NCBI GenBank assembly: GCA_031426555.1 | Contig: JANPLN010000042.1 | Location: 1 to 64,000 of the forward strand | Direction: 5' to 3' | DNA length: 64,000 bases | Origin: Bdellovibrionales bacterium | Lineage (GTDB): Bacteria; Bdellovibrionota; Bdellovibrionia; Bdellovibrionales; JAGQZY01 | Made by a program: the position numbers and the translations under genes | Part shown: positions 23,892 through 55,563 of the stretch, piece by piece | How positions within the stretch are numbered: position 1 is the first letter of the stretch | Layout: every line of letters begins with the position of its first letter | Notes under the pieces: generated by a model | What the model was told of the DNA's origin: nothing | Database searches by the model: none | What the model saw: the letters and a program-made list of their open reading frames with translations, nothing else

Positions 23892-24761
23892 ATGAAGGGT
23901 ATTATTTTAGCAGGTGGCAGCGGGACTCGTTTATTTCCAACAACTCTCGCCGTGAGCAAGCAGCTTTTGCCTGTTTACGACAAACCGACAATTTATTACC
24001 CGTTATCCACGCTCATGATTGCTGGCATTCGAGAAATCATGATTATCAGCACACCCCGCGATGTGCCCATGATTCGCTCCTTGCTCGGAGATGGAAAAAA
24101 ACTGGGTCTCGAAATCAGCTATGCCGTTCAAGAAAAACCAGACGGTATTGCCCAGGCATTTGTTATTGCCGATGAATTTATTCGTGGCTCGTCGGTATGT
24201 TTAATTCTTGGCGATAATATTTTTTACGGCGAGAACATGCCGACCATGCTGCAGGAAGCGACGCAACTCAAAACCGGAGCCGCAGTGTTTGCTTACCGCG
24301 TGAATGATCCAGAACGCTACGGCGTGGTTGAATTTGATGAATCAGGTAAAGCGGTGAGCATCGAGGAAAAGCCCGCTGTGCCGCGATCGAGCTGGGCGGT
24401 GACCGGGCTTTACTTTTACGACAGCAATGTCACTCAGTTAGTTCGTGGCTTGAAGCCCTCTAAGCGTGGAGAAATCGAAATCACGGATCTCAATTCGCTG
24501 TATCTTAAAGCGCAAGATTTAAAAGTTTTCACCTTGGGTCGCGGAGTGGCGTGGCTTGACACGGGCACCGATGATTCACTTTTGGACTCCGCTCAGTTTG
24601 TCCATACCATCGAAAAACGCCAAGGCCTTAAGATTGCGTGTCTTGAAGAGATTTCGCTAGAAAAAGGATATATTTCGAAAACTCAGTTTACAAAACTTGC
24701 CGAGGAAGCTCCCATGAGTGGCTACGGGCAGTACTTAAAAAAAATCGCATCGCATCTTTAA
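23892..24761 (+). CDS. rfbA: Glucose-1-phosphate thymidylyltransferase
   Basis: MKGIILAGGSGTRLFP, SKQLLPVYDKP, LGDNIF, EEKP, WLDTGT. Confidence 0.97.
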   Translation: MKGIILAGGSGTRLFPTTLAVSKQLLPVYDKPTIYYPLSTLMIAGIREIMIISTPRDVPMIRSLLGDGKKLGLEISYAVQEKPDGIAQAFVIADEFIRGSSVCLILGDNIFYGENMPTMLQEATQLKTGAAVFAYRVNDPERYGVVEFDESGKAVSIEEKPAVPRSSWAVTGLYFYDSNVTQLVRGLKPSKRGEIEITDLNSLYLKAQDLKVFTLGRGVAWLDTGTDDSLLDSAQFVHTIEKRQGLKIACLEEISLEKGYISKTQFTKLAEEAPMSGYGQYLKKIASHL

Positions 24762-32823: not shown

Positions 32824-33729
32824 CTCTCGCATAATATCAGGGCGCACGAAGCCGCGCTCAATGTTGTGCTGAACGTATTTTTCATCAAATACTTTTTCGT
32901 TTAAACATTCCAGCAATAGCTGAAAAAAGAATTTTTGTTGGTTTGGGTCTGGATGGGGTTTATAAAAATTCCCGGATTCAAAATCAACCCAACCCATTTG
33001 CTGTTTAAATTTCCTCAACATAAAAGCTGGCGAAATTGCCTTTGTCCCAAGCTTTAACGTCAACTCTCCTGTGGTGTCGAAGTCGCGCGCCAGGCCGGTT
33101 TTCCACGGCTGGGTTGAGCGCTCAGTCATATGTAAAAGTTTTGTATTTGCATCCAGGTAATCAAATGAATTCCACTCGTCGGGCAAAATGCCAATGCTTG
33201 ATTGATCTTCGAGTTTTAAACCAATCCAATCGCCGTAATCAAATTTTTTGGCAAACATGTCTTCAATCACTTGGTCCCACTTCCAGTGGGTGAGCTTGGC
33301 GCAATTTAATAACATCACGCTGGTGCCAAAAAATGATTTTGCATAGCCTGTGTATTTACCGGAGTTCACTTGACGAGCCCAAATAGGTTTTTGATGAAAA
33401 TCAAACACCTCACCGAGCTTTGCGATGTCGGCACTGACTGCAAAAACATCGGGATCGGTGACGATGGCGATGCCTTGGTACGACATTAACTGCGGTGGTA
33501 GAAACCGAAGAGGCGAAAAGGATTGAAGATCAGAATTAATCCACGTAGCCTTGCGGCCCTTACGTAGATAAGTCTGCCCTTCTTTAGCGGTCAAAACAGG
33601 ATGGTCTTTGAGCTCGATCAAGTCGGCTGCGACTTTACCACCGGAAAGTTTGCGAAAGGAGTAAGCGGCCACTTTTGCGCCCAGCAATTGCGATTCGTTG
33701 GTATGGATAAAAACTCTCATATTTGACAT
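32800..33729 (-). CDS. GT8-like glycosyltransferase (paralog of 25891..26742)
   Basis: RVFI, SFSPLRF, DPDVF, TSVMLL, WNSFD, HMTERSTQPW. Confidence 0.65.
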   Translation of the reverse strand: MSNMRVFIHTNESQLLGAKVAAYSFRKLSGGKVAADLIELKDHPVLTAKEGQTYLRKGRKATWINSDLQSFSPLRFLPPQLMSYQGIAIVTDPDVFAVSADIAKLGEVFDFHQKPIWARQVNSGKYTGYAKSFFGTSVMLLNCAKLTHWKWDQVIEDMFAKKFDYGDWIGLKLEDQSSIGILPDEWNSFDYLDANTKLLHMTERSTQPWKTGLARDFDTTGELTLKLGTKAISPAFMLRKFKQQMGWVDFESGNFYKPHPDPNQQKFFFQLLLECLNEKVFDEKYVQHNIERGFVRPDIMRELETVANL

Positions 33730-37502: not shown

Positions 37503-37532
37503 ACTCATTCACAGGGAATAATCTTGCCTAGC

Positions 37533-39473
37533 ATGAAGAGAGCTACCGTTATTTTTATAATTGGTGCAGTTCTCTTCCTGGGGCAAAGATTCTTTATGAT
37601 TGGAGTGTCCTATTCTGTAATGGGTATTCCACGCCTGGGAGATGATGCATTTTTTTACGTCTCAAAAGGTATAGGTGTTTTTAAAAACTACAATCACGAT
37701 ACTCAGCTGCAAAAAGACATAAGAAAACAAATCTCGCAACAAACTTTACTTGATCCTACCCAAGTGCAGCAAAATCTAAGAGCGGAATATCAGGCTTACG
37801 GCGGACCCACTGTTTTTTACGATCTCCTCATGGGGGCAATCTACAAAATGGCGGGAAGTGTTAACAAGAGTTTTATGATCAGCGAAATTGTGGTTTCTTT
37901 ATGCATGTTTTTCTGCTTCTCGTACTTTTTTATCGCGCTCGCAGGGGTAGAGGTCGCAGGGTTCGGTTTAGCTTTACTGAGCCTACTTTTTTTACCAGGC
38001 CAAGGAATTCATTACTTGATACCAAGCACACTCGCTCTTTCGTTAGGAATCGCCTTTATTGCCTTTTGCCTTCGTGGAAAGAGGGTGGCTGTAGTTTTCT
38101 TACTGTCCGCTGCTACAGTAATGATTCATTTGATGGGGATCGTTTGGGTTTGCTTTGGAGTTTGTCTTCTAATACTCAGGTTTTTTAACTTCCAGAAAAA
38201 ACTTGATAGCAATGTAAAACAACTTCTACTATTAGTAGCGGCGGCGTTACTGCCAATTTTAATTAAAATTGTTCTGCTTCAAACGACAATTTATTTTTCG
38301 CTCCCCTACGCAACTGTGAGTTTTCCAAATAACCTTCAGGAAACGGTTCTTGTTAATCTAAATGTATTCATTGAACATTTGCTTGCTATGAAACTGCCAA
38401 CACAACTCATTCTTTTGTTTTCTGCGTGCAATGTACTTTACTTAGTTGTTTCGAAAAAACTTGAGCAGAGGGAGAACTCATTACTTCTCGTTTTTTTTCT
38501 GCTTCTGTTCACTTCAATATTTGTTTATGTTCCATTTATCCCGGCCGAGGTTTCTATCCGTGTTTTTTCGGCAATGAGTTTATTTTTGATTCTTTTGATG
38601 GCAAAACGCTTGGCTTATTCATCTGGAAATCTAAAAGCCTTTGCTGGTTTTGGGTTATTTTTCATTGCCTTCTCAGTTTGGACTTTTAGTGACCTGCAAA
38701 TTTATATGAAAGAGAATTTCGGACGACGCTATGTGATCAATTCCGAATTATTTAAGGAAGAAATTAATAGGTTTGATCTTGGAAAAGAAGTTTTGTTTTA
38801 TCTGGATACGGAGTATACCTTTCGGCAGGCGGTCCTTGCTGGCTTGGAAGTTTATCCGTCTTATCTTTATCCATTGATAGATCGACAACCAAACAAAGAA
38901 GAGTTTTTTTACAAATCGCCAACTTTGTTTATGTTTCCAGTATTTAACTCACTCAATACCCGAGTCGATGGCAATAAAAACTACTCTCGTGCCCACGAGT
39001 ATGGCTTAGATTTATCGATCTTGAGAGGTCTGAAAATTGAAAGCTCGAGTCAGATTAAAAAGATTTATCTAAAGTTAAAAAATTATGGAAACGCCACAAA
39101 ATTAAACTTACTCGTGAACGGTGAAGCCGTCTCATTTGATTTGAAAGCGAATGAAGAAATTTGGACTACTATTGATCTTCGTACGGTTGTTTCAAGTGTT
39201 GAAGTAAAAAATAATGTCGGAGATGTTTTAATTAGTGGCTTGCATTTGAATGACTTAAATAAATCCGAAAAGGTAAACTGGCCTTGGGGTGAGGATGTAA
39301 CATTAAATATCATGTTTATTGCAAACGACTCCGAAGATCATAAAATATTAGATTTTTCTATTTCGGGCATTTTTACGAGCCAAGAAATGAATACGTTTTC
39401 CAAGATTCAAAAAATAGAGGCCCTTTCTGACAATTCGGGGATCGTAGTCGCAAGGATTCATTCGTGGCTGTAG
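37533..39473 (+). CDS. Large membrane protein, putative GT-C-type transferase with C-terminal soluble domain
   Basis: Acidic PRLGDDAFFY motif after TM1, many TM segments, then a periplasmic domain; AT-rich. Confidence 0.55.
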   Translation: MKRATVIFIIGAVLFLGQRFFMIGVSYSVMGIPRLGDDAFFYVSKGIGVFKNYNHDTQLQKDIRKQISQQTLLDPTQVQQNLRAEYQAYGGPTVFYDLLMGAIYKMAGSVNKSFMISEIVVSLCMFFCFSYFFIALAGVEVAGFGLALLSLLFLPGQGIHYLIPSTLALSLGIAFIAFCLRGKRVAVVFLLSAATVMIHLMGIVWVCFGVCLLILRFFNFQKKLDSNVKQLLLLVAAALLPILIKIVLLQTTIYFSLPYATVSFPNNLQETVLVNLNVFIEHLLAMKLPTQLILLFSACNVLYLVVSKKLEQRENSLLLVFFLLLFTSIFVYVPFIPAEVSIRVFSAMSLFLILLMAKRLAYSSGNLKAFAGFGLFFIAFSVWTFSDLQIYMKENFGRRYVINSELFKEEINRFDLGKEVLFYLDTEYTFRQAVLAGLEVYPSYLYPLIDRQPNKEEFFYKSPTLFMFPVFNSLNTRVDGNKNYSRAHEYGLDLSILRGLKIESSSQIKKIYLKLKNYGNATKLNLLVNGEAVSFDLKANEEIWTTIDLRTVVSSVEVKNNVGDVLISGLHLNDLNKSEKVNWPWGEDVTLNIMFIANDSEDHKILDFSISGIFTSQEMNTFSKIQKIEALSDNSGIVVARIHSWL

Positions 39474-40288
39474 TTAAGCTATCTCCAGATCTCGTAAAAA
39501 AGTTTATTCATCTCAAAAAAGGCGAGATATATCTTAACGAAGCTCAATTTGGTTTATCTCATGTTTTTGAAAATCTCCGCAGTCTTCCACCGGGCTCCAG
39601 GGTATTAGAAGTGGGTTCGGGTCCTGGAATTTTGCTAGCTGAACTATCAAAACTTTTTCCAGATTTGCACATAGAAGGTATCGAGCCAAACAGTCAAGGC
39701 TTTGAGTTTTTTTCGGACTTCCAGTCAAATTTGGAAAACCAAATTAAAATCCATTGTGGGGGATATGAAACCTTCGATAGTAATAAGTCCTGGGACTTTA
39801 TATTTTCGGTAAATGTTTTTGAGCATTTGCCTGATTGGAAAAATTTTATTGGTTTTCTCAAGCAAAACCTCTCTTCTCGAGGCACGGCTATGATTCTTTG
39901 TCCTAACTATAGTTTTCCATATGAGTCACATTTTGGTTTGCCAATTATTTTCACAAAACGACTGACGTATTTTTTTTTTCAAAACTACATCAGGGCTTTT
40001 GAAAAAAAAAATGAGTGCGCTGGACTTTGGCAAAGTCTTAACTTTGTTAAATACCGTGAAGTTGCACGCTGTCTCAAAAGCAATAAAATGGAGCTAATTA
40101 GTCATTTACGAATCGTTGAGGAGATGGTTCAAAGACTTTCCTATGATAAACAATTCGCGCAGCGACAGATGTTTTTGTCACTGCCTGCACGTTTTTTGAT
40201 GCGCACAAATTTGCTTACGAAAATTTTAAAGTTTCCAGGGATTCGATATTATGTTCCCTACATGCATTTAGAAATTAAACCAGGATAG
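39464..40288 (+). CDS. Class I SAM-dependent methyltransferase
   Basis: VLEVGSGPG, GIEP, NVFEHL, CPNY.FPYESH. Confidence 0.85.
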   Translation: MAVVKLSPDLVKKFIHLKKGEIYLNEAQFGLSHVFENLRSLPPGSRVLEVGSGPGILLAELSKLFPDLHIEGIEPNSQGFEFFSDFQSNLENQIKIHCGGYETFDSNKSWDFIFSVNVFEHLPDWKNFIGFLKQNLSSRGTAMILCPNYSFPYESHFGLPIIFTKRLTYFFFQNYIRAFEKKNECAGLWQSLNFVKYREVARCLKSNKMELISHLRIVEEMVQRLSYDKQFAQRQMFLSLPARFLMRTNLLTKILKFPGIRYYVPYMHLEIKPG

Positions 40289-40298
40289 TTTCAGAACT

Positions 40299-41432
40299 TT
40301 AACAATTTTTACGTATCCAATATGTTGTGCTTTCAAGGACAAAATCTTGGTTTTCATCTGTCAAATTGTAAAAAATTGGCAATCGGACTAAGCAATCTGA
40401 GAGGCGCTCACACTGTGGCAAAGATTCATTGCCCGCATATCGCAAACCGTAGGGAGACTTGTGCAGGGATACATAATGAAAGGTGCAGCATATTCCTGCG
40501 CCTTTCTGATCCAAAATAAACTGATCGCGTAGTTTTTTATTTGCAAAGATAAGTGCGAAAATGTGGTGGTTGGATGTGTTATAGCTTGGTGACTCAAGAA
40601 TCTGCACGCCGTGCTTTTCACAAATGGACTTTAAACTTTCATAATACTTATGCCAAACCTGTTTTCTGCGGTCTTGAATCACCGATAATTGTTCGAGCTG
40701 TGGTAAAAGATAAGCGGCATTCAAATCACTTAGGACATAACTGGAGCCCAAGTCCACCCATGTGTACTTGTCGGCCAATCCCATCATAAACTGTTTGCGA
40801 TTGGTGCCCTTCTGACGGAGGACATCAGACCGATCTACAAAATTTGGATTATTAATGATCAAACAGCCGCCCTCTCCAGATCCAACATTTTTTGTCTCAT
40901 GAAAGCTGTAACAACCCAGATCCCCGATAGTTCCTAAGGCCTGTCCTTTATATAAGCTGCCAATAGATTGTGCGGCATCTTCGAAAAGGAAAACATTGTT
41001 CTTCAAACAAATCGCCTTGAGTTCGTCCATGGGCGCAGAATTACCGCCGTAGTGGACAGTCACAACTGCTTTTGTCTTGGAGTTCAAAAGCCTCTCTACT
41101 TCCGATATTTTGAGATTTCCATACTCATCGACGTCAGCAAAACGAATACGAGCTTCGCGCAAGGCGAAAGCGTTGGCGGTGGACACAAAAGTGAAGGCGG
41201 GAATGATGACCTCATCATCTTTTCCGATATGGCCAAGCAGTGCCATCATTTCCAAGGCATGAGTCGCTGATGTCACAATAGAGTTTCTAGAGCCATTGAG
41301 CAGATCCAGACGTTTTTCGCATTCTAGAGTAAACGGTCCAACCCCTGAAAGGTGCTTCGAAAGTAAGGCCTTTTGTAAAATGGCCTTATGTTCTTCGAGG
41401 TAGATGGGTTCGTTAAAAGGAACTCTGTACAT
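40299..41432 (-). CDS. rffA: dTDP-4-amino-4,6-dideoxygalactose transaminase
   Basis: SATHALEM, FTFVSTANAF, EDAAQ, SFHETKN..GEGG, KGTNR..F...DKYTWVDLGSSY (WecE signature). Confidence 0.9.
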   Translation of the reverse strand: MYRVPFNEPIYLEEHKAILQKALLSKHLSGVGPFTLECEKRLDLLNGSRNSIVTSATHALEMMALLGHIGKDDEVIIPAFTFVSTANAFALREARIRFADVDEYGNLKISEVERLLNSKTKAVVTVHYGGNSAPMDELKAICLKNNVFLFEDAAQSIGSLYKGQALGTIGDLGCYSFHETKNVGSGEGGCLIINNPNFVDRSDVLRQKGTNRKQFMMGLADKYTWVDLGSSYVLSDLNAAYLLPQLEQLSVIQDRRKQVWHKYYESLKSICEKHGVQILESPSYNTSNHHIFALIFANKKLRDQFILDQKGAGICCTFHYVSLHKSPYGLRYAGNESLPQCERLSDCLVRLPIFYNLTDENQDFVLESTTYWIRKNC

Positions 41433-41522: not shown

Positions 41523-42491
41523 ATGGCTTATATTTCCGCAGTAGTTCCAGTTTACAAAGGTGAATCCTGTTTTGAAGAGCTTTTGCGTCGACTCGTTTCC
41601 GAAATGGAGATCATTTCGAAAGATTATGAAATTGTCTTCGTAGAAGATTGTGGCGGCGATGGTTCCTGGAAATTGATTTGTGATGCTGCAAAAAAGAACC
41701 CGCGGATCAAAGGTATCCAGTTGAGTCGGAACAGTGGAGAACATCATGCGCTTTCTGCAGGTTTAGATCTTTGCGATGGAGAGTGGGTGGTCCTTTTGGC
41801 GTGTGATTTACAAGATCCTCCCGAGGTTATCGGCGACCTCTACCGTAAGGCCAAAGAAGGCTTCGATATTGTTGTGGCCTCGAGGATGAATCGCAAGGAC
41901 AGCTTTGGAAAAATTTTGTTCTCGATGATTTACAATCGTTTAATTTCTTGGCTGGCCGATGGGAAGTTTGATACCAAAGTCGCTAATTTTCGAATTGTGA
42001 GCCGCAAAGTTGTTTTGAGTTTTCGAAAATACCGAGAAAGCATTCGCTCAATTCCTGGCATCATGAATGTGATGGGATTCCGAGCCACAGTCCTCCCCAT
42101 CGAGCATGCGGAGCGCTTTGCTGGGAAAAGCAGCTACAACTTTTACCGATCCTTACGACTCGCACTTCACAACATTATTGCATATTCTGACAAACCCCTA
42201 AAGCTGGCTGTATATTTAGGCTTTTTTATTGCGAGCAGTTCTTTTTTGTATGGAGCTTTTTTGATTTTGAGAATGTTTGTCGTCGGAGGCACGCTGCCGG
42301 GGTGGACAAGCCTCATTGTTTCGGTTTTTTTCGTGGGCGGAGTGAATCTTTCCATGATGGGTGTGCTAGGTGTGTATCTTGGAAAGGTGTTTAACCAAGT
42401 CAAAGGACGGCCCAATTATTTAATCAGCGAGGCGACTTTTGATGCTGCTTCGGCCATAAATGATAAAAGATTACATCCGAACCGGTCTTAA
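41523..42491 (+). CDS. GT2, GtrB/ArnC-like bactoprenol glycosyltransferase
   Basis: SAVVPVY, VEDCGGD, LSRNSG, CDLQDPPE, RFAGKSSY, SDKPL, GWTSL, GVYLGKV..RPNY. Confidence 0.88.
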   Translation: MAYISAVVPVYKGESCFEELLRRLVSEMEIISKDYEIVFVEDCGGDGSWKLICDAAKKNPRIKGIQLSRNSGEHHALSAGLDLCDGEWVVLLACDLQDPPEVIGDLYRKAKEGFDIVVASRMNRKDSFGKILFSMIYNRLISWLADGKFDTKVANFRIVSRKVVLSFRKYRESIRSIPGIMNVMGFRATVLPIEHAERFAGKSSYNFYRSLRLALHNIIAYSDKPLKLAVYLGFFIASSSFLYGAFLILRMFVVGGTLPGWTSLIVSVFFVGGVNLSMMGVLGVYLGKVFNQVKGRPNYLISEATFDAASAINDKRLHPNRS

Positions 42492-43170
42492 CAAATCCAA
42501 GCTGGTTGAAAAAACGTTTAGATTCTTGGTTATGGGAGTAGATTGAAGTTCGAAGCTCTAATGGGGGCGATGCTTGTGTGGCGCTGCTCATAAGGTGCTT
42601 TACCAGCTGAAGTGAAACGAACCCCATACGAAATTGTGGTGCCACGAGCAGTTCGTAGAGATTCCAAACTGAGTCCTTCATATAGCCAACGTGAAAGCCG
42701 ATGAGTCTGTTTTCTGCATCGACAGCTACACAGCCATTGTTCGTTGATTTTGCTAAATGTGTCTTCAACATTTCTAGCTTATGGAACTGAACGGATTCCT
42801 TTGATAAATGCGCATCTGCTGAGAATCGAGTTGTGGAAGAAAACTCAAGCAGTCCTTTTATTGCGGGCCAATCGTTTGGCTGGAGATTTCGCGTTTTAAA
42901 TTTAGATGGAACTTTTGCAAGACGCGAGACTGCCGACGCCGGTAAAGCGGTCCAGGTTTCAAGGCCGCCAACAAACTGACAAAAGCGCGGTTCATTTATC
43001 CTTAGGGCAGCACGAATGACAACAAGATCAATTTCCGAAGCCAGAGCCTGAGAATATATTTTTTCTCCGATTTCTACATCTACACACATCTCTGGGGTTA
43101 AGACGACTTCAGCCACACGAATGGAAAATAACTTTGAATTAAATTCGTTCGTGCTGAAGTGAATTTTCAA
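42424..43170 (-). CDS. GNAT acyltransferase, WecD/RffC-like
   Basis: TRF..D.HL, LLVAPQFRMG, HNQESKRFFNQLGF, C-terminal YHLW; TTG start overlaps asnB stop. Confidence 0.7.
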   Translation of the reverse strand: MKIHFSTNEFNSKLFSIRVAEVVLTPEMCVDVEIGEKIYSQALASEIDLVVIRAALRINEPRFCQFVGGLETWTALPASAVSRLAKVPSKFKTRNLQPNDWPAIKGLLEFSSTTRFSADAHLSKESVQFHKLEMLKTHLAKSTNNGCVAVDAENRLIGFHVGYMKDSVWNLYELLVAPQFRMGFVSLQLVKHLMSSATQASPPLELRTSIYSHNQESKRFFNQLGFVKTGSDVIFYHLWPKQHQKSPR

Positions 43171-45134
43171 AGTCGCACGACCTTTTTAATTAAATGGCTC
43201 ACATCTTTAACTTGCAGGGGCCGTTTAAACTCTTCCTGAAGAATCAACGAAGAAAGCACAACAAAAAATGCGGTGTTGTCCCTGCGGGAAAGAGGCTTGT
43301 TATTCTGTATGGTCGCCTGAATTCTTCTTAAAAAGTTGAGAACCCCTTGTTCATCAAAAACGCCTGAGTTTTTAAGACTTGAAGAATTGATGTAGTCTTG
43401 CACCGGCCATTGCTCTGTAAAGAATATCTCTGCATCGAGGGATAAAAATGGCTTCTTTCGTTTTTCGAACAAAAAATCAGGAATATCTTTTTTAAATGCA
43501 TCATACAGGATCTGTTTTTCCTTCAGGCCGTCCATGAATTCGGTCACGGAATGCGAAAATGCATAGTTAAGTACGTCACGGTCTAAAAATGGCAATCGGG
43601 TTTCGATAGAGTGTGCAGATGCCATTCGATCGCCTTGGGAAGAAAGAAGGTAGCCATGAAGAAGCGTTAAGCACTCAACGGCGCGTGTTTGATCAAGAGT
43701 ATTTAGCTGCGCAAGTTCCGGAAAGTCGCGCGAAAGTGAATCGTTGACCTCAGGAAAAGTGTCTTTGTTGAGTAAGGAAAGATGACCTGTAACTTGCGAC
43801 CATCGGGTGAGGTGTCCAGCAAATGGTTGACTCATCTGCGGTAAAAAACTCTTATAAAACGGGAGCATCAACTTGGCCGACGTTCCCTGAAATTGTGGTA
43901 GATAACTGTATATTTTTAAAATGTCGGAAAAATGTGGACCGTCGGGTTCCTTTGACCACTGCGAAAGGATCTGTGCCTCTTTGTAGATGTCGTACCCACC
44001 GAAGAGTTCATCAGAGCCTTCGCCCGTGAGAACAACCTTCACCCCTTCTCTCTGCGCGAGCTGAGACAGGAGGAACATAGGTACCGCGGCAGAACGAAAC
44101 GTTATGCTTTCGGCGGATAAAACAGACGGAACAAAGTTTTCGAGAATGTCGTTTTGGGAAATTCGCACCTTATGATGTTCAGACCCAATCATCTTTTGGA
44201 CGATTGCTTGGGATGAACTTTCATCGAACTGCAAATTCTCAAATTCTATCGAAAAAGATTTTAGAGGGAGTGTGGTATTGCGTGCGGCGAGCAAGCTCAC
44301 TACGGTACTATCAAGGCCGCCACTCAAATAAACACCAACTGGCACGTCCGCAACCATTCGGCGGGAGACAGCACGAGATAAAAGCTCGCGCACTTCAGCA
44401 CTCGACGGTTGAGAATGGGGTTTCTGCGGGGCAAAAGTCCAATGGCGCGTTTCCACCATTTGTGTGGAGCTGATTTTTAGAAAAGATCCGGGTTTTAGTT
44501 GAAGGATATTTTTAAATGATGTTTGCGGAGGAATAGGGGTCCACGTTTCAAGCGACTGTGTAACGGCCAAACTATTGATCTCTGGAGATTGAGAACCGGT
44601 GGCCCAGAGCAAAGGTTTAATTTCGGATGAGAATAAAATAGCATTGTTTTCGAGAATTCTATAATAAAGCGGCTTTATTCCTATTGGGTCTCGAAACAGA
44701 TAGCTCTCGTTCTTTAAGGAATCAAAAATTGCAAACGCATACTCACCATTAAGATGCTCGGTCAATTTTGTCCCGTACTTTTCGAACAAATTAACAATTG
44801 TTTCTGTGTCAGAAGTTGTCTGGAATTCCATCCCAGCGCTTTGTAGCTGACCCCGTAACATCGAATTATCGTAAATTTCACCGTTATAGACAATCCAATA
44901 TCTTTTTGAGTGGCTTGCAATGGGTTGTGTTCCTGTCAGCAGATCAATAATTTTTAACCGAGCATTTGCAAAAAAACTCTGGCCAGAGGTGAGAATTCCC
45001 ATCTCATCGGGACCTCGGTGTTCTATAAGACTTAACATTCCCTCTGCAAGTGCGAGGACGTCATTTTTAGGGCTCACGCCGAGGCTTTTAAGCTCTTTAT
45101 TCTGGGGATTAAAAAGTCCTACAATGCCACACAT
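43167..45134 (-). CDS. asnB: Asparagine synthase (glutamine-hydrolyzing)-like amidotransferase
   Basis: MCGI (Cys2 nucleophile), HRGPD, NGEIY, LSGGLDS, TGEGSDELFGGY, ETRLPFLD. Confidence 0.9.
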   Translation of the reverse strand: MCGIVGLFNPQNKELKSLGVSPKNDVLALAEGMLSLIEHRGPDEMGILTSGQSFFANARLKIIDLLTGTQPIASHSKRYWIVYNGEIYDNSMLRGQLQSAGMEFQTTSDTETIVNLFEKYGTKLTEHLNGEYAFAIFDSLKNESYLFRDPIGIKPLYYRILENNAILFSSEIKPLLWATGSQSPEINSLAVTQSLETWTPIPPQTSFKNILQLKPGSFLKISSTQMVETRHWTFAPQKPHSQPSSAEVRELLSRAVSRRMVADVPVGVYLSGGLDSTVVSLLAARNTTLPLKSFSIEFENLQFDESSSQAIVQKMIGSEHHKVRISQNDILENFVPSVLSAESITFRSAAVPMFLLSQLAQREGVKVVLTGEGSDELFGGYDIYKEAQILSQWSKEPDGPHFSDILKIYSYLPQFQGTSAKLMLPFYKSFLPQMSQPFAGHLTRWSQVTGHLSLLNKDTFPEVNDSLSRDFPELAQLNTLDQTRAVECLTLLHGYLLSSQGDRMASAHSIETRLPFLDRDVLNYAFSHSVTEFMDGLKEKQILYDAFKKDIPDFLFEKRKKPFLSLDAEIFFTEQWPVQDYINSSSLKNSGVFDEQGVLNFLRRIQATIQNNKPLSRRDNTAFFVVLSSLILQEEFKRPLQVKDVSHLIKKVVRL

Positions 45135-45997
45135 TTTGTAATGTCCTCATTGGTAGTCATGGAAAAACAAGGTTTTGTGCGCATGTAAAACAACATTTTT
45201 TTTAATTGGTCGCCTTGACCACATTCAAGAAAGTGGGTTGTGCCAAACTGAACAAGGGTTTGGATCGATTTGTGCCAAAGAACGGGAGAACACATATGAC
45301 CAAGAAGGTTGCTCTTGATAATTTCAGGATCCGTCTCGCCGGCACCACTGTAGTTGCATACATAAAAACAGGTTGGAGGGTGAAACTCGTAGCGATCAAG
45401 CAGCTGTTGATATTCCTCAATTGAGTCTTTTAAAAATGGACTGTGCCAAGATCCTTCAACATCAAGCAACTGTACCTGAAAGTTTAATTTCGTAAGTTGC
45501 TGGGAGAATGCGTTTAAATTTTCTTTAAGGCCGCAAAGGGTATGATTAAAAAGTGAATTGATCGTCGAAAAGAAAATCTTTTGATTTAGTTTTGCTTCCG
45601 CTAGTAGAGTTTTAATATCGTCGTGAGTGGGACCAATCACACTGAGCATTCCGTGGTCCAGCGGCATATACTTTTTCATGAGCAGAGAGCGTTTAACAGC
45701 GAGCTCCAAGGCTGAGCGCCAGTCAAGTATTCCGGCAGAGTAAAGTGCCGCCATTTGTCCCACCGAGTAGCCACTCACTGCGGCGTAGGAGCCTCCATGG
45801 GCCTTGTAAAGTTGTGCGCAGGCAATGCCCTCGGCGACAGAAAACGAAGAAACAATGGTGTGGGAAGAATTGCTATCCAAATTTTCAGCCGTTACCAAAT
45901 CCTTTACATATTGAAAACATTCACTTTTAGATTGGGAATAGTTTGAAAATTGTTCGACAGTAACTTTACCAAGGCCAGCGAAAAGAAGTGTTTTCAC
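45119..45997 (-). CDS. FabD-like ACP S-malonyltransferase (standalone AT)
   Basis: GYSVG (catalytic Ser), conserved Arg (VKRS), GSWHS (catalytic His), SPVLW, FLECG. Confidence 0.82.
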   Translation of the reverse strand: MKTLLFAGLGKVTVEQFSNYSQSKSECFQYVKDLVTAENLDSNSSHTIVSSFSVAEGIACAQLYKAHGGSYAAVSGYSVGQMAALYSAGILDWRSALELAVKRSLLMKKYMPLDHGMLSVIGPTHDDIKTLLAEAKLNQKIFFSTINSLFNHTLCGLKENLNAFSQQLTKLNFQVQLLDVEGSWHSPFLKDSIEEYQQLLDRYEFHPPTCFYVCNYSGAGETDPEIIKSNLLGHMCSPVLWHKSIQTLVQFGTTHFLECGQGDQLKKMLFYMRTKPCFSMTTNEDITKCVAL

Positions 45998-46986
45998 GTG
46001 AACCTGTTAAGTTTCTTTTCGATAGGGGCTGTATCAACGGCTTTGAATTTCATTTTATCCAAGCCCTCTTGTCTAGAGATCGTTCCTCTGCGGACCATCA
46101 CTGCGGTTTCTGCTACGTAAGGATGAAACCGCCATTTTTCGAGGTGTTTTTGGATGGCGTAGTCATTGAGGAGACAATTCGAAGAGGACTTTCCGGTGTC
46201 GGGAGGGCGCACCCAGCCGAGAGTTTGAATCTCCTTGATAATGGCATCTTCGTGCAAATTTAAGTATGTCATAGGATTTAAAATCCATACTTCTCGCATT
46301 TCGGGAGAATCTTTTTGCTGGAAATACGCAAGGGTATCATTCTGAAAATAATTTTTAAAATTTTCCAGTGTTTGGGTGCGTGATTTCATCGAAGCCGCTA
46401 AGTTTTGCTTCATAAAACCAGTCTCTGAGGGAATTTGACCACCAAGGTAGCCGCCTGAAATCACTGGAATTTTTTGTTCGATGGCGAAGTTAACAACTTG
46501 GTTGTTAATGAGTTGAATACAGCTGTTACAGACAGAGCTAGCTCTTTTGCTCGCTGCTGCAGAATAGATATCTTGCTTGAGGGAAGTTCTATAAACTTCC
46601 ATCATGACTTTGGCGTTAGGTTTAAAGAAAATGTGATCGACGCCAAGTTCAGACGTCACGGTTTCGCAATTTTGTTTTGCAGTTTCAGAGATGAAATCAT
46701 TGTTAATCGTGTAAGCAAGAATTTTGGTGTCGAAATTTTCAGTTAGATATTTTAATGTGTAACAAGAGTCTTTGCCGCCGCTAAATGCTAAAATGATTCC
46801 GTAATGATTTTTTTCAACATTATTAAGTTTTACTTTAACTTGAGTTTCAACGTCGATCCGTACGCGCTCGAAATCAACATTCTTTTTTTCAAAATCGGTA
46901 CAGTAATTACAAATGCCTTCAGGGCTGAAAGAAATTCCTGGGAAAGTTGCAGGCAGTACGCATCGGGTGCAGATTTCTACAGTCAT
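45994..46986 (-). CDS. PP-loop (N-type) ATP pyrophosphatase with Zn finger, N-acetyl-sugar amidotransferase (WbuX)/QueC-like
   Basis: CTRCVLP...GICNYC, AFSGGKDS, CNSC, SSNC, HPY, VRRGTISR. Confidence 0.8.
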   Translation of the reverse strand: MTVEICTRCVLPATFPGISFSPEGICNYCTDFEKKNVDFERVRIDVETQVKVKLNNVEKNHYGIILAFSGGKDSCYTLKYLTENFDTKILAYTINNDFISETAKQNCETVTSELGVDHIFFKPNAKVMMEVYRTSLKQDIYSAAASKRASSVCNSCIQLINNQVVNFAIEQKIPVISGGYLGGQIPSETGFMKQNLAASMKSRTQTLENFKNYFQNDTLAYFQQKDSPEMREVWILNPMTYLNLHEDAIIKEIQTLGWVRPPDTGKSSSNCLLNDYAIQKHLEKWRFHPYVAETAVMVRRGTISRQEGLDKMKFKAVDTAPIEKKLNRFT

Positions 46987-47237
46987 TGTAGTTTCTTTTT
47001 TTCAATTAACTGTGTAAGCCCCGAAATTGTTTGCATGTGAATAGAGACAAGATCCTGTTCGTCAAAAGTGATGGAGAATTCGGATTCGACCTCAGTGACT
47101 AGCTCCATAAAGCCGTACGAATCCATACCAATAACAAATAAATTTTTGTCTGCCATTTGGCTGGAAATGGGGGTTGCCATAATGACAGTAAGTTTCTGAA
47201 TTAGATATTCCTGTACAGGATTTTTTGCGGGAGTCAT
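46983..47237 (-). CDS. Acyl carrier protein (84 aa)
   Basis: Acidic; LFVIGMDSYGFMELVTEVESEFSI (GxDS phosphopantetheine site); ATGA coupling to next gene. Confidence 0.85.
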   Translation of the reverse strand: MTPAKNPVQEYLIQKLTVIMATPISSQMADKNLFVIGMDSYGFMELVTEVESEFSITFDEQDLVSIHMQTISGLTQLIEKKKLQ

Positions 47238-47527
47238 AAGCCTTATTTGCGGTTTGAGTAGAGTCATAGTCAAGACCAAAAGGGCTGTTTTAAGCAGGCG
47301 GGAACGCGTTGTGTTGCCGCGCAGCAAGAGATGAGGCCAGTCAAGTTTGAGAAAGACTCTGGTCGGTCTTAATTCTTCCTCGAATGAGGCTAAGCTTAAA
47401 GGTGATATTTTTGCCTTCGTAAGTGCGCCCGTAATTGATTGCCTAATATTAGGCACGAGGAAGGGAATTGCTGGTGTCGTTAGAACATTCTTATCTCACT
47501 TAGAAATTAGATTTCTAAAAAACCTAC

Positions 47528-49390
47528 CTAGCGATACTTTTGTAAAGTTGTTTTCGAAAAAAGAAGTTCCCCAATATATTTTGCTCCAGATTGCGTAACA
47601 TGGTGGGCGTCCTCTGATAGAAGTGCTCCATCAGGGGTATACACAATACAAGTCGACGAGTTTTTGCCGCAGATCATGTCGTGCATGGAAATATAATTCG
47701 CTTTTTTAACATTTTTTTCGAGAGATACTTCGATTTGTAAAAAATCAGCAAAATAATTTCCTCCGAGTGGTTTACGATAGTCTGCATCAGCCTGATTAAA
47801 GTCTCCTATTTTTGCGGTTCCAAAAATCTTTTTTCCAATGACGTAGACGACTGCATCTTTCTTTTTGGGGATGTTCTCAATTGTTTCATCAATTCTTTCC
47901 GCAGCCCACTGCCGCCATGAGCTTGCAAGAAGAATTACATCTGCCTCTTCACTCAGTCTTAAGAATCTCGTTGTAGAATCTTTGGAACAAAGATTTTTAT
48001 CCTCTGATGCAATAAATTGCGTAACGTTCACTTTGCCGTAGTAAATTTGGCAACGTGCAGGAATTGTGTGGGTGAGAATTTCATACCCTGGAAAAGCTTT
48101 ATTTTCAAAAATCATATTCGTTAGATCCTCGGCAAAGCTATCGCCAACAATCAGTAATTTTGGCTGTTGGGTCGAAAATTTTTCTAAATAACTGAACTGT
48201 TCAAATTGTTTCTTTCGGTATACGCTTGTTTTGTAAGGGTCTGGCAGTCGGTGAATGGTGTAATCGGAAAAACGTTGTGGGTGACCGTTTTCCAATGTCA
48301 GATAGTGCGCAATGCCAGCAAGAAGAATGGTTGATGTAATGAAAAATACGAAGACTGACGATTGGGATATCAGTTTTCGATTGCGAAACGGTTGTTCAAT
48401 AAATTTCCAACTCAGGTAGGATAAAATAAACGTTAAAAATATTAGTATGGAAAATTCACTGCAGGAAGGGTGCTCTTTGTATAGCTTTAAGTAGGCAAAA
48501 AGCGGCTGGTGCCATAAGTAGGCACTATAGCTAACAAGTCCAATTGAAACAAAAAAAGTATGAGATAAAAAACGTCCAACCAAGCTTGCAGAATTTGAAC
48601 ATAAAATGATCAAACCAGCACCGCAAGTTGGTATGAGTGTGGTTAAGCCTGGTGTGGGTGTGTGTTTTGAGAATAGAAAAACGGATGCTAAGATAAAAAC
48701 CAGGCCAAATGCTTCCCCGAATTTTAAATACAAGGAGGAAATTTTTGTACTTTTTATCGTTGTCCGATACAGCCCGAGAAAACAGCCAAGTAAAAGTTCC
48801 CAAATACGTCCACGCATTAGAAAAAAATTGGCGTCCATGTTGGAGCGCCAGCCTAATTCTGCCCAAACGAGACCAAGAACAAATAAAATTGAGAGAAGCA
48901 GAGTTAAAAATAATCGAGACCGTTTATAGAGAACAAGCAGAAGAAGTGGAAAAAGAACATAAAATTGTTCCTCTACGCTAAGACTCCATGTGTGGAGCAG
49001 AGGTTTTTCTTCAGCCGTGGCAAGAAAGTAACCAGACTCTTTCCAAAACAAAAGATTTGAACAGAAGGCAAGAACAGCAAGAATGCTTCGTCCAAAATCT
49101 ACAAGTTGGTAGGGAAACATCCACGCCCAAGCAGGAGGTATCGTAGCTAAGATGACAAAGAACAATGCTGGCGATATTCTACGAATTCGACGCTCATAAA
49201 AGTTTAAAATTGTAAAAGAGCCTTTTTGAATTTCTGAAAGTATATTGGACGTTATCAGATATCCACTTATGACAAAAAAAATATCGACGCCGACAAATCC
49301 ACCACCGAAGATCGTAAACCCAGCGTGAAAAAAAATAACCGGAAGAACGGCAATTGCACGGAGGCCGTCGATCTCTCTACGATAAACCAA
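47528..49390 (-). CDS. Acyltransferase-3 + SGNH fusion O-acetyltransferase (OafA/OatA-like)
   Basis: YRREIDGLRAIAV, GVDIFFVISGYLI, HTWSLSVEEQFY, SYSAYLWHQP; SGNH GDSFA and DAHH. Confidence 0.92.
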   Translation of the reverse strand: MVYRREIDGLRAIAVLPVIFFHAGFTIFGGGFVGVDIFFVISGYLITSNILSEIQKGSFTILNFYERRIRRISPALFFVILATIPPAWAWMFPYQLVDFGRSILAVLAFCSNLLFWKESGYFLATAEEKPLLHTWSLSVEEQFYVLFPLLLLVLYKRSRLFLTLLLSILFVLGLVWAELGWRSNMDANFFLMRGRIWELLLGCFLGLYRTTIKSTKISSLYLKFGEAFGLVFILASVFLFSKHTPTPGLTTLIPTCGAGLIILCSNSASLVGRFLSHTFFVSIGLVSYSAYLWHQPLFAYLKLYKEHPSCSEFSILIFLTFILSYLSWKFIEQPFRNRKLISQSSVFVFFITSTILLAGIAHYLTLENGHPQRFSDYTIHRLPDPYKTSVYRKKQFEQFSYLEKFSTQQPKLLIVGDSFAEDLTNMIFENKAFPGYEILTHTIPARCQIYYGKVNVTQFIASEDKNLCSKDSTTRFLRLSEEADVILLASSWRQWAAERIDETIENIPKKKDAVVYVIGKKIFGTAKIGDFNQADADYRKPLGGNYFADFLQIEVSLEKNVKKANYISMHDMICGKNSSTCIVYTPDGALLSEDAHHVTQSGAKYIGELLFSKTTLQKYR

Positions 49391-49455
49391 AAAACCACTC
49401 CATTCGTGTGTACTTCAGACTTATGCCTTCGAATCCACAAGTTAGGCTTTGAGAC

Positions 49456-50247
49456 TTACGAATACAAACGCACATTTTGCGCCGAGTCATTGGCGATGTG
49501 CGTGTCGTTAAGACGCTTGCGAATCACGGCGATCTCATTCGCGCACTTTGGCTGATAAAAATACCACAGATTAAAATAAAAAATATACCAGATGGCCTCG
49601 AGGCCATCTTTAAAAGCTACCTTTTTACCTTCGTCGTAGGTGCGGCCGTAATAGGAAATGGGGACTTCGTAAACTCGAGCAGAGACTTTGCTCACCAGCG
49701 CCGTGATTTCGATCTCCATGCCAAAGCCCTGGGCGGTGAGGCCCATGTCTTTGATGATGTGCGTGCGGAAAGCTTTATAGCCGGTTTCAATATCGGTCAT
49801 GTTGAGGTTTGTTAGCAGGTTGGACAAAAAGGTTAAAAATTTATTAGCCAGGTAATGATAAAAATAAAGCACGCGGGATTCTTTGCGCACTAAAAATCGA
49901 CTGCCATAAACCACATCGGCTCTGCCGCTCAGGATTGGCGCCAGCACCGCGGGGATTTCTTCGGGGTTGTACTCCAAATCGGCATCTTGAATTATACACA
50001 CGTCTCCCGAGGCTTGCTCGAGCGCCGTTTGAATGGCTGCGGTTTTCCCTTTGTTTTTTGCATGAAAAAAAGTTTTCACGCGTGCATGGCTGTAGGTTTT
50101 TAAAAACTCCGTCGTTCCATCGGTGGAGCCATCATCCACCACGATGATCTCCGTGATTTGTTCCACCGCCAATAGCTTTTGAATCACTTGGGGGATGGTG
50201 CGGGATTCATTGTATGCGGCGACAAGAGCGCTAACTGTTAATGGCAT
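49456..50247 (-). CDS. GT2, DPM1-like polyprenol-phosphate glycosyltransferase
   Basis: AYNE, VDDGSTDGT, IQDADLEY, VYGSRF, TDIETGYKAFR, EVPISYYGR. Confidence 0.9.
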   Translation of the reverse strand: MPLTVSALVAAYNESRTIPQVIQKLLAVEQITEIIVVDDGSTDGTTEFLKTYSHARVKTFFHAKNKGKTAAIQTALEQASGDVCIIQDADLEYNPEEIPAVLAPILSGRADVVYGSRFLVRKESRVLYFYHYLANKFLTFLSNLLTNLNMTDIETGYKAFRTHIIKDMGLTAQGFGMEIEITALVSKVSARVYEVPISYYGRTYDEGKKVAFKDGLEAIWYIFYFNLWYFYQPKCANEIAVIRKRLNDTHIANDSAQNVRLYS

Positions 50248-53220: not shown

Positions 53221-54192
53221 TCAATGACGTGTGAGGTAGCGCTCCGCACGCTGATCAATAATAAGGTCTGGAGCTCCAGAGTCTCTAAAGGCTCTGGGAA
53301 GGTATTTTTGGGTGTCGAAAAAGCGCATGTATACGATTTTACGAAAGTACGGAGCTAAATAAAACTGCAACTTGTCGCTAAAAGAATCTCGTACAACCCA
53401 AATCACTTTTTGCGCCGAGTGGTTTTCGTAGACGACATAATTTCCATCCGAAATAACAGGAATCTGGCAGCAGGCACCTTGCAGATTCACTTTTAGGTGA
53501 GGCCGCGACACTTCTTCAAAGCCGATGATTTTATCCAACCCGTTTAACATTAAAAAGATATCGTGCGGATTCTGCCGCGCAAGGACTTCTTCCCTCGGTG
53601 GCAGCGGCACTGTTTGCGTTGCTAAGAGGTTGTCGACGGCTTTGAGAATGGCAAGATGTGCGGTGTACGCCCCCCAATCGTTCCAATGGGTGTCGGTGGC
53701 GTGGTACAACTGGCGTTCGCCCTTAGCGCGGAGAAGCGGCTCGTACAGCGAAAGGACGTGAGGTTCTAATTCTTTGGCAGCGGCAAGAATTTGCTGCAGA
53801 TATTTATTTTCGGCGGGACGGTAGTCTGCAAATAAGTAGTTGGTGAATTCGAGGTACACGGTTTCTTTGTTGGGAGCAATTACCAAAAGGTACTTGGCCG
53901 CGAAACCGTAGGGCGCCTTTACAAATTGGCGAATTCGCTGGGCGCTTTCTTGAATTGTGACGGGGAAGGAAACGCCCCAAAAATCCTCCCAAGCAGTGCC
54001 ATCACTTTTGTTAAAATAAAACAGCCAACCGTCTCGCCCCAGATGAACATTGCCGGTATTTGTGTGGTGCAAGACGTTGACTTGCCAGAGAGCGTTTAAA
54101 TTATAAGCCTGCTCGCGCAGATAGCCTTTTACCGAAAACACTCCGGGGGCTGCAATCAGAAAAAAATAAATAAAGACCAGAAACTTTTTCAT
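53221..54192 (-). CDS. AlgJ/AlgX-like SGNH O-acetyltransferase partner
   Basis: N-terminal TM; GRDGWLF, APNKETVY, TDTHWNDWGAY (DxHW), RDSF. Confidence 0.85.
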   Translation of the reverse strand: MKKFLVFIYFFLIAAPGVFSVKGYLREQAYNLNALWQVNVLHHTNTGNVHLGRDGWLFYFNKSDGTAWEDFWGVSFPVTIQESAQRIRQFVKAPYGFAAKYLLVIAPNKETVYLEFTNYLFADYRPAENKYLQQILAAAKELEPHVLSLYEPLLRAKGERQLYHATDTHWNDWGAYTAHLAILKAVDNLLATQTVPLPPREEVLARQNPHDIFLMLNGLDKIIGFEEVSRPHLKVNLQGACCQIPVISDGNYVVYENHSAQKVIWVVRDSFSDKLQFYLAPYFRKIVYMRFFDTQKYLPRAFRDSGAPDLIIDQRAERYLTRH

Positions 54193-54195
54193 TTG

Positions 54196-55563
54196 TTAAA
54201 ACCTAAAGTAGATAAAAGGGTTGTACTCTTGGCCACAGAGAAAGATGCAGGAAATCAAAAAGACACTCATAGACCAGAGGTGGCTCTGGCAATCTAGTTT
54301 GTAAACCACCGGTGTACAAAATAAAACAGCTATTAAAAAATAAACGTAGAAATGCGGGGTGGAAACGAATTGCAAAGTGTCGTTGGAGATCAAATGACCG
54401 TGCAAGCCGGCCATACTTGAGTACATGGCGCAGATTTGCGCAAACGATTCTGCGCGAAAAATAACCCAACTCAAAACAATCACAAGCAAGGCGTAGGTGT
54501 GCTGAAGCCACTGCGGAAAGTGAAAATTCATTTTTTTGCCCAAGATTCTTTCGCAGATCAAAAAGAATCCGTGGTAACAACCCCAAAGAAGAAACGTCAC
54601 ATTGGCCCCATGCCAAACTCCACAAAGAATAAACACCAGCATGAGATTTCGATACTCTTTAAAAACTCCCTGTTTGTTGCCTCCGAGGGGAATATACAAG
54701 TAATCGCGAAACCAAAGAGACAGCGTGATGTGCCAGCGGCGCCAAAACTCTTTTATACTTCGGGCTAAATAGGGAGCATTAAAGTTTTCTGGAAGAACAA
54801 TGCCGAACATTTTTGCGAGACCCACGGCCATGTCGGAGTATCCCGAAAAATCAAAATAAATTTGCAGGGTATAAGTACAGGCGGCCACCCACGCGAGAGT
54901 GGTATCCAAGCGGCTACTGTCCAATGTAAAAAGCATGTCGGCGTAGTAACCAAGGGGATTGGCGATGATGACTTTTTTTCCAAGTCCCAGCGAAAACCGT
55001 CGAAAACCCTCGGCAACCTGTTCCCAGCTATGGGTTCGGTTTTCTAATTGGTTTTTAAGATCCACATATCGAATGATAGGCCCCGCCACCAGGTGGGGAA
55101 AAAAGGTAATAAAGGCCCAGTAATCAATAAAGCGGCGCGTGGCTTTGATATGCCCTCTGTACACGTCGATGATATAGCTCATGGATTCGAAAGTATAAAA
55201 ACTGATGCCAATGGGGAGCGCGATGTTTATGTACGGCGTGTATTTAAAAAAGACGAGCAACCCCATGTTCGAAACAATAGATATCAGCAATAAATAAAAA
55301 AGAAATTTTGCATTGGGCGCCGGTTTTTTTTGCTCGGCGTCCATGAGCAAGGCGATACAATAGTCAGTAAGCCCCACCACGAGCATCACCCAAAAGAATT
55401 TTTTTTCTCCAGTTATATAAAAATCCACGCTCGCAGCGAACAGAACAAAATTGAGGGCATTAAAAACTGAGCGCTTGTTTTTAAAAATCGCATGTGTGGC
55501 AAAGTAGAGCGCCAACACAATGGGCAAAAAGCTAAAAATAAATGCCAGCGAACTAAAAACCAT
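54196..55563 (-). CDS. MBOAT O-acyltransferase (AlgI/DltB family)
   Basis: LPIGISFYTF, FFPHLVAGPIIRY, QIYFDFSGYSDMA, FWRRWHITLS.WFRDYLYIPLGGN, GVWHGA. Confidence 0.93.
   Translation of the reverse strand: MVFSSLAFIFSFLPIVLALYFATHAIFKNKRSVFNALNFVLFAASVDFYITGEKKFFWVMLVVGLTDYCIALLMDAEQKKPAPNAKFLFYLLLISIVSNMGLLVFFKYTPYINIALPIGISFYTFESMSYIIDVYRGHIKATRRFIDYWAFITFFPHLVAGPIIRYVDLKNQLENRTHSWEQVAEGFRRFSLGLGKKVIIANPLGYYADMLFTLDSSRLDTTLAWVAACTYTLQIYFDFSGYSDMAVGLAKMFGIVLPENFNAPYLARSIKEFWRRWHITLSLWFRDYLYIPLGGNKQGVFKEYRNLMLVFILCGVWHGANVTFLLWGCYHGFFLICERILGKKMNFHFPQWLQHTYALLVIVLSWVIFRAESFAQICAMYSSMAGLHGHLISNDTLQFVSTPHFYVYFLIAVLFCTPVVYKLDCQSHLWSMSVFLISCIFLCGQEYNPFIYFRF

Follow-up and report, generated by a model that had tools for sequence, protein, structure and literature searches.

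A 64,000-nucleotide stretch of the Bdellovibrionales bacterium assembly GCA_031426555.1 (contig JANPLN010000042.1; hereafter the window) carries a cassette of five intact open reading frames (ORFs) on the minus strand, whose successive junctions overlap by 4, 4, 16 and 4 bases. We tentatively propose that this cassette is a ketosynthase-free carrier module that would place a nitrile acyl group on a WecE-made amino sugar at the cell surface, a model that as a whole we regard as possible rather than probable. The acyltransferase (AT) would load a succinyl (or malonyl) group from CoA onto the acyl carrier protein (ACP), and AsnB would amidate the free carboxyl of the acyl-ACP with glutamine nitrogen, giving succinamyl-ACP (or malonamyl-ACP). 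A PP-loop enzyme resembling the AMDH domains of nonribosomal peptide synthetases (NRPSs) would dehydrate the amide to the nitrile, giving 3-cyanopropanoyl-ACP (or the cyanoacetyl form), and the GNAT would transfer this acyl group to the dTDP-4-amino-4,6-dideoxyhexose made by WecE. Moving the resulting N-cyanoacyl sugar to undecaprenyl phosphate would fall to a GtrB-like enzyme, and attaching it to lipopolysaccharide (LPS) or another surface glycan to the membrane protein encoded at 37524-39473. The genes concerned are:

46983..47237, minus strand: dedicated ACP, 84 residues, GMDS motif with Ser40; PP-binding model E 2e-7, 31 bits, over cut-off
45994..46986, minus strand: PP-loop ATPase, 330 residues, CxxC..CxxC, SGGKDS; candidate metal ligands Cys153, Cys156 and Cys271
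45119..45997, minus strand: AT, 292 residues, Acyl_transf_1; GYSVG 76-80 with Ser78, Arg103, GSWH 182-185 with His185
43167..45134, minus strand: AsnB, 655 residues; Cys2, HRGPD, NGEIY, SGGLDS, GEGSDE; TIGR01536 420 bits (cut-off 267)
42424..43170, minus strand: GNAT, 248 residues in two parts, Acetyltransf_10 at the C-terminus; shortened loop VAPQFRMGFVS
41523..42491, plus strand: gtrB, GtrB/ArnC/PgfS-like family 2 glycosyltransferase (GT2); PgfS 204 bits and ArnC 179 bits, each below cut-off
40299..41432, minus strand: WecE-type dTDP-4-keto-6-deoxyhexose aminotransferase; NF008687 439 bits (cut-off 375)
37524..39473, plus strand: polytopic membrane protein with about 10 hydrophobic segments, candidate GT-C (a lead only)

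The cassette had been singled out in a preliminary description of this DNA, and the five overlapping genes are all present and intact; the ACP with GMDS, the PP-loop enzyme with SGGKDS and CxxC..CxxC, and the complete AsnB with Cys2 are seen by family models or motifs. That description had also reported no ketosynthase (KS) or NRPS gene in the window, and neither family occurs among the 57 window ORFs that were scanned (out of 73 of at least 120 residues, the remainder being overlapping frames or flanking genes). A hidden partner of the polyketide synthase (PKS) or NRPS type is ruled out, as none was found in the genome, which is 100% complete: its single full KS is FabF, beside FabD and an ACP in the fab operon on contig C5. 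The genome encodes two PP-binding proteins only, the cassette ACP and that of fatty acid synthesis, and one ACPS-family phosphopantetheinyl transferase, located elsewhere. ACP, PP-loop enzyme, AT and AsnB were found together in 6/80 GTDB loci, in identical order in 5, so the arrangement is not a chance one; these 80 are the best of 121 confirmed loci from a GTDB scan with a 38-sequence alignment of the PP-loop enzyme, and 79 of them encode it as a stand-alone protein. Sister strains carry the cassette as well; their identity to the window is about 90% or more, and they come from four runs of two further studies, run X1 being excluded as a possible source of the window DNA. One of their contigs covers 43290-47358 and another bridges wecE, gtrB and the GNAT gene; none of those listed covers the entire block. 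A promoter and terminator scan of the window gave hits at chance level. No RNA data set was listed as containing the cassette, a result without bearing on its expression.

Loading and amidation on the ACP are, on our analysis, very probable. The AT is likely a GbnB-type succinyl/malonyl-CoA:ACP transacylase, judging by its motifs. It had been called FabD-like with intact Ser, Arg and His; the three residues are there, but GYSVG/GSWH are not the motifs of a FabD, the host enzyme having GHSVG/APFH. GYSVG and GxWH are invariant in 8/8 aligned cassette ATs. The extracts of the gladiolin report (bioRxiv 10.64898/2026.04.24.720606) give GHSLG/G(A)AFH for malonyl ATs versus GYSVG/GAWH for GbnB, which succinylates the ACP GbnA in vitro with a marginal preference over malonyl. 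According to the same extracts, the amide nitrogen of the gladiolin starter comes from glutamine, and amidation was assigned to the AsnB homologue GbnC by genetics and labelling, no in vitro assay having been achieved. Because the window AT carries GbnB-type motifs, succinamyl-ACP is somewhat likelier than malonamyl-ACP, and the loaded group would somewhat likelier be succinyl; malonyl, the group assumed by the preliminary description, is thereby weakened as the default but kept as the alternative. Viral contigs searched with the AT alignment contained no relative.

AsnB is likely a glutamine-dependent amide synthetase that acts on acyl-ACP. In the tree of AsnB proteins, which had been suggested as a check, it clusters with the AsnBs of other AT cassettes (FastTree 0.92); the neighbours are ACP-linked AsnBs from cassettes with a ligase, including that of Sinorhizobium meliloti, and two second AsnBs of glycan loci (the general sugar-locus type) are distant. 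The idea of a ketosynthase-free AT/ACP/AsnB trio that makes a carrier-bound amide in a glycan locus is thus upheld, partly by this tree and partly by analogy with GbnA/GbnB/GbnC of gladiolin (succinamyl) and the MgsC/MgsD-type glutarimide systems (malonamyl). By published motifs and descriptions, as far as the extracts go, the likeness extends to a stand-alone ACP, the AT motifs GYSVG/GxWH, an AsnB homologue and amidation on the carrier. Those systems, however, feed the KS of a trans-AT PKS, which the window cassette does not, as its genome has FabF only and no PKS; the cassette also has an additional AMDH-like enzyme and a GNAT, lacks an amidase, and lies in a glycan locus.

The PP-loop enzyme is predicted from its sequence to be a stand-alone, AMDH-like amide dehydratase (nitrile synthetase). 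It aligns end to end with the insert of a 941-residue A(insert)-T protein of Xanthomonas albilineans (locus L080; 31% identity, 133 bits, E 1e-38), which we take to be AlbIV by its architecture and by the resemblance, judged by eye, of its insert to the CysH AMDH sequence in the extracted supplement of PMC7966384. The extracts of that report state that the AMDH of CysH (cystobactamid) dehydrates carrier-bound Asn to beta-cyanoalanine in vitro, also isomerises it, and purifies brown; homologues are described there only inside Asn-specific A domains. Window enzyme and CysH/AlbIV domains share full-length homology, the SGGKD, CxxC and NC motifs and, by our prediction, a carrier-bound primary amide as substrate, as far as the extracts describe it (PMC7966384). 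They differ in that the window enzyme is a free-standing protein instead of an insert in an A domain specific for Asn, and that its substrate, predicted from AT and AsnB, has no alpha-amino group. Carrier-bound Asn contains the four-carbon succinamate skeleton, and succinamyl-ACP is the same structure minus the amino group.

Database searches and trees point the same way. Median BLAST scores from the window enzyme are 137 bits for 23 NRPS inserts and 62 bits for 9 HisH/HisF-linked enzymes. When 1.84 billion representatives are searched with a profile, stand-alone proteins rank first, followed by many long proteins of NRPS size. The closest relatives (P0002-P0012) are 47-55% identical, P0002 and P0005 being assigned to the AT group by tree position only. 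In the IQ-TREE phylogeny (39 rows), the AT-type stand-alone enzymes group at 99/97, all stand-alone enzymes at 88/85, and these join the NRPS AMDH at 80/86, with classic WbuX separate at 100/100; a FastTree phylogeny (164 rows) agrees, the join of AMDH and stand-alone enzymes reaching 0.60. Cys153, Cys156 and Cys271 are conserved in 76/76 stand-alone rows (for which Cys271 and the PP-loop belonged to the search patterns), in 23/23 NRPS inserts and in 0/6 classic WbuX proteins. We suggest that the three cysteines mark a shared amide-activating scaffold, with the chemical outcome indicated by the gene neighbours.

These neighbours speak for dehydration. HisH/HisF are absent from all 79 stand-alone GTDB loci (and so from the 46 with good flanks described below) and from the scanned window ORFs, and no cysteine-desulfurase-like gene was found in loci L001-L160 or among those ORFs; the partners for making an amidine or a thioamide are therefore missing. 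With no donor of ammonia or sulfur next to it, the activated amide would most simply be dehydrated in the third step. There is precedent for the chemistry in PesC, an established ATP-dependent amide-to-nitrile enzyme working via an AMP-imidate, and in ArtA/NitB and CalN, which do the dehydration step alone (extracts of PMC13060819). The preliminary description had let the PP-loop enzyme modify the amide further in an undefined way; the AMDH relationship now indicates dehydration to a nitrile, which on balance we favour.

Classic WbuX identity is rejected. The best NCBIfam match of the PP-loop enzyme is TIGR03573 (WbuX), at 133 bits below the cut-off of 203, HisH/HisF are lacking, and the CxxC and NC motifs are absent in classic members; the HisH/HisF-linked enzymes of L205 and L206 score 283 and 213. 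WbuX and the window enzyme do share the fold, a zinc-finger-like N-terminus, the PP-loop and the occurrence in glycan loci, but the partner in the window is an ACP. It is nevertheless conceivable, although we consider it unlikely, that the same carrier module and sugar are used with another outcome of the PP-loop step, be it an amidine (WbuX/PseA-like, with free ammonia), an isomer, a cyclic imide, or an action on the N-acyl sugar once the transfer has taken place; the earlier malonamyl product with its undefined further change belongs here. The AlphaFold model of the enzyme (pLDDT 95.6) has as its closest solved fold the N-acetyl sugar amidotransferase 8WEX (Z 24.4, rmsd 3.6, 307 aligned residues), which favours such an outcome, as does the presence of the CxxC and the third cysteine in 3/3 enzymes adjoining HisH/HisF that we take to be PseA-like. 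Isomerisation by the CysH AMDH (PMC7966384, extracts) fits as well, and since the AsnB-like PesC makes nitriles itself, the roles could differ (PMC13060819, extracts). The uniform lack of HisH/HisF speaks against it, however, as do the remote position in the tree of classic WbuX, which lacks the motifs, and the near-constant ACP linkage, which indicates a carrier-bound substrate.

The fold comparison also bears on a very unlikely alternative to nitrile formation, in which the PP-loop enzyme would be an iron-sulfur sulfur transferase like TtuA or LarE and yield a thioamide or thiocarboxylate. In the fold comparison TtuA, NcsA and LarE come next (Z 11-13), and a related three-cysteine clade adjoins a cysteine-desulfurase-like gene and a carbamoyltransferase gene. 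However, the tree sets that clade apart, and no desulfurase-like gene is seen in L001-L160 or among the scanned window ORFs, although a housekeeping desulfurase might stand in.

The exit step is the weakest part of the model. We regard the GNAT as likely to be an acyl-ACP:amino-sugar N-acyltransferase, and the assignment of the exit to it is kept from the preliminary description, no other cytoplasmic N-acyltransferase being found among the scanned window ORFs. Its description as WecD-like was not confirmed, as no WecD model or structure was matched in NCBIfam or PDB sequence searches. A homologue search returned two proteins, one being the window GNAT itself and the sole homologue being 88% identical, and none came up in 25 genomes of the family; a single-sequence structure model (pLDDT 39) was not used. 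The canonical acetyl-CoA motif A reads Q/RxxGxG/A. In the window GNAT this motif is one residue short compared with RimI, and the shortened CoA-pyrophosphate loop would fit a donor without CoA pyrophosphate, which we count as weak evidence. All 5 other assessable AT cassettes have a GNAT or GNAT-like gene next to them, clearly so in L007 and L014 and weakly in L003 and L057; in L006 the assignment is made solely by 36% identity to the L057 protein.

An amino sugar is probably the acceptor, and WecE is likely the maker of its amine. The wecE gene had been noted about 1 kb away; its family holds by NF008687, but it misses the TIGR02379 cut-off (375 vs 435), so that Fuc4N and Qui4N are not distinguished. 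RmlA and RmlB, which supply the WecE substrate, are encoded in the window, and a second DegT gene (881-1975) is an alternative source of the amine. The gtrB gene sits between wecE and the cassette, overlaps the end of the GNAT gene by 68 bases, and likely encodes the transferase of the acylated sugar to polyprenyl phosphate. The membrane protein has no Pfam or NCBIfam match and one Atlas look-alike cluster, with PMT_2 on 15% of its members. WecE, RmlA/RmlB, the GtrB/ArnC-like GT2 and the 10-segment membrane protein would make up a complete route to the surface. The logic of aminotransferase, N-acyltransferase, GT2 and membrane transferase is that of the WecE/WecD dTDP-Fuc4NAc pathway and of the Arn/Gtr systems; the predicted donor in the window differs in being a tailored acyl-ACP, where those systems use acetyl-CoA or formyl-THF.

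Two other exits have to be weighed. We give hardly any credence to the upstream AT3-SGNH (OafA-like) protein accepting the acyl group in place of the GNAT and O-acylating a polymer outside the membrane. Its gene precedes the cassette on the same strand at a distance of 290 bases, and AT3 proteins such as ExoH transfer succinyl; this role is largely refuted, however, by the sister strains, which retain wecE, gtrB, the GNAT gene and the cassette without an adjacent oafA-like gene (47528-49390). In two runs of study P2 their contigs join 47382 to 49550, with a weaker joint in one P3 run. It is improbable, though with more on its side, that the amide or nitrile acyl-ACP goes elsewhere (to a protein, lipid or small molecule), or that the GNAT is a plain acetyl-CoA-dependent acetyltransferase, with the cassette merely carried along in a variable locus. 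Cassette and GNAT stand beside an NRPS in L007 and L014, the cassettes of L001 and L003 lie among arginine-biosynthesis genes, 15/46 loci have none of the glycan markers used, and a search through 25 further genomes of the family did not recover the cassette. On the other side stand the lack of another cytoplasmic N-acyltransferase among the scanned ORFs, the shortened GNAT motif A, the retention of the block in sister strains, and the layout of aminotransferase, GT2 and membrane protein, which is repeated in L006 and L057.

The wider survey puts the proposed nitrile module in context. Among the stand-alone GTDB loci, 46 of 79 have 5 kb on both sides; counts come from all-frame searches of loci that are not independent, and carry no statistical test. 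Within 5 kb, an ACP is present in 42, a loader in 43 (AMP-ligase 39, AT 5, both 1, neither 3), an amide-forming enzyme in 38 (AsnB 29, NadE-like 10, both 1, neither 8), and all three roles in 34. Over the whole locus, a KS occurs in 1, at least one glycan marker in 31 and at least two in 23, and at least 5 of the 46 are NRPS-linked; a confinement of homologous cassettes to PKS surroundings, which the preliminary description had named as fatal to its proposal, thus does not hold. Relatives of the module span many phyla, and the PP-loop and AsnB trees each place the AT cassettes together. Cultured carriers include Syntrophorhabdus aromaticivorans (L008), Methylobacterium nonmethylotrophicum (L014) and Paenibacillus elgii (L043). 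L006 and L057 mirror the window, with NDP-sugar dehydratase, DegT aminotransferase, GT2, polytopic membrane protein, a small GNAT-like gene and the cassette. L007 and L014 combine AT cassette and GNAT with an NRPS, an acyl-CoA dehydrogenase and a B12 radical SAM gene, and in L003 and the truncated L001 the arginine-biosynthesis genes surround an AT cassette. In L002 (8178-11959), a nitrilase-family gene follows those for ligase, ACP and PP-loop enzyme, which speaks for the nitrile reading. A loader, ACP, amide synthetase and stand-alone AMDH might, as a further tentative proposal, form a widespread module that makes omega-cyanoacyl groups for bacterial and archaeal surface glycans; nitrile-bearing LPS and exopolysaccharides would then be frequent in Desulfobacterota, Nitrospirota, Chloroflexota and other groups, with the starter also priming NRPS and type II PKS products.

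Several points weigh against these readings. For the AT, motifs determine specificity only partly (bioRxiv 10.64898/2026.04.24.720606, extracts), and the marginal succinyl preference of GbnB in the same extracts weakens the succinyl assignment. The grouping of AMDH and stand-alone enzymes is moderately supported (80/86; FastTree 0.60), and the window enzyme is sister to the NRPS AMDH clade, not nested inside it. The three cysteines are not diagnostic, as they also occur in 3/9 HisH/HisF-linked enzymes and in the desulfurase-linked clade. No relative of the GNAT is characterised, and two-sequence profiles, of low power, detected no homology between it and the GNAT-like proteins of L006 and L057; gtrB, on the opposite strand, interrupts wecE and the cassette. 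The other assessable AT cassettes lie in glycan loci in 2/5 cases, with NRPS in 2/5 and among housekeeping genes in 1/5, and the nitrilase-family gene occurs in 1 locus only. Finally, S. meliloti has AsnB and a NadE-like protein together and no PP-loop enzyme; since its operon holds both, the NadE-like protein is not simply a substitute for AsnB.

The S. meliloti operon (asnB, ACP SMb20651, ligase SMb20650, nadE-like) resembles the cassette in its neighbouring-clade AsnB (35% identity), dedicated ACP and acylating loader. It differs by having a ligase instead of the AT, by lacking an AMDH-like enzyme and a GNAT, and by its position outside a glycan locus. SMb20650 acylates SMb20651 in vivo (PMC7232532, extracts). 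A carrier and loader in an O-antigen locus have been proposed to supply an unusual acyl group in the RfbK/RfbL tetronate pathway of Vibrio cholerae O1, a precedent that differs in its hydroxy-acid chemistry and in having no amidation or dehydration (PMC12208996, extracts).

A search of full-text literature, with thin coverage of the subscription journals in which many glycan structures appear, returned no stand-alone AMDH, cyanoacyl-ACP pathway or nitrile-acylated glycan. The individual components are known ones; no description of how they are combined here, of the predicted product or of the module's breadth turned up in the literature searched. If the model is true, nitriles are to be added to the groups that decorate microbial glycans; as a speculation, capping a surface sugar with a neutral cyanoacyl group could change charge or phage recognition. 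A free-standing AMDH would offer access to the mechanism; the embedded domain of CysH resisted crystallisation, and its authors left the mechanism open (PMC7966384, extracts). There would also be a candidate role for the AsnB/ACP/ligase/NadE-like genes in many exopolysaccharide and PEP-CTERM loci, where annotations read only 'QueC', 'TilS' or 'NAD synthase'. One metal-binding PP-loop scaffold is apparently steered by its neighbours to nitrile, amidine or sulfur chemistry.

The cassette is embedded in a long region of surface-glycan genes, among them rmlABCD, ABC genes of the wzm/wzt type, many glycosyltransferase genes, one for an O-antigen ligase and one of the DAHP/KdsA family. Between 881 and 36520, glycan genes switch strand unusually often, and four ORFs belong to no family (28538-29875, 24758-25828, 32800-33729, 13342-14712). 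The stretch 37524-40288, with the membrane protein and a methyltransferase, has the lowest GC of the window (0.36-0.38) and thin coverage by sister-strain contigs; it may be a swappable acceptor or tailoring part. Pairwise comparison of the window membrane protein with those of L006 and L057, and of these two with each other, showed no similarity. The OafA-like AT3-SGNH gene (47528-49390), with a low GC content at third codon positions (0.35) and absent in sister strains, would be a recent insertion or loss. A pair of AlgI-type MBOAT and AlgX/AlgJ-type SGNH genes at 53221-55563 is a separate system for polymer O-acylation.

Further loci of the survey are of interest in their own right. The archaeon Methanococcoides (L079) and a related metagenome locus (L144) have a module of ACP, ligase, PP-loop enzyme and NadE-like protein. 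On the Bacillus thuringiensis plasmid NZ_CP009349.1 (L204, 8843-20740), an ACP and a stand-alone AMDH-like enzyme occur with two AMP-ligases, two ACPs, KS/CLF/DH/KR and AsnB, a highly reducing type II PKS cluster with a nitrile-ended chain as its possible product; L134, near L204 in the tree, likewise has a KS. L007 (2822-18246) and L014 (7972-20463) contain an NRPS with a nitroreductase-type domain, and the Paenibacillus loci L043, L044 and L046 combine the ligase version of the cassette with an NRPS; all five are candidates for nitrile natural products. A Bacillus pseudomycoides plasmid (L203, 9938-10960) has a stand-alone AMDH-like gene without ACP, near an S66 (MccF-like) peptidase and a PLP aminotransferase. 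In the phylum of the window, L191, L192, L193, L196, L197 and L199 (genomes G211, G231, G390, G246, G153 and G240) form the separate three-cysteine PP-loop clade beside a cysteine-desulfurase-like gene and a CmcH/NodU carbamoyltransferase, in tandem in G153 and G240, which is possibly a sulfur-inserting (thiocarbamate or thioamide) system.

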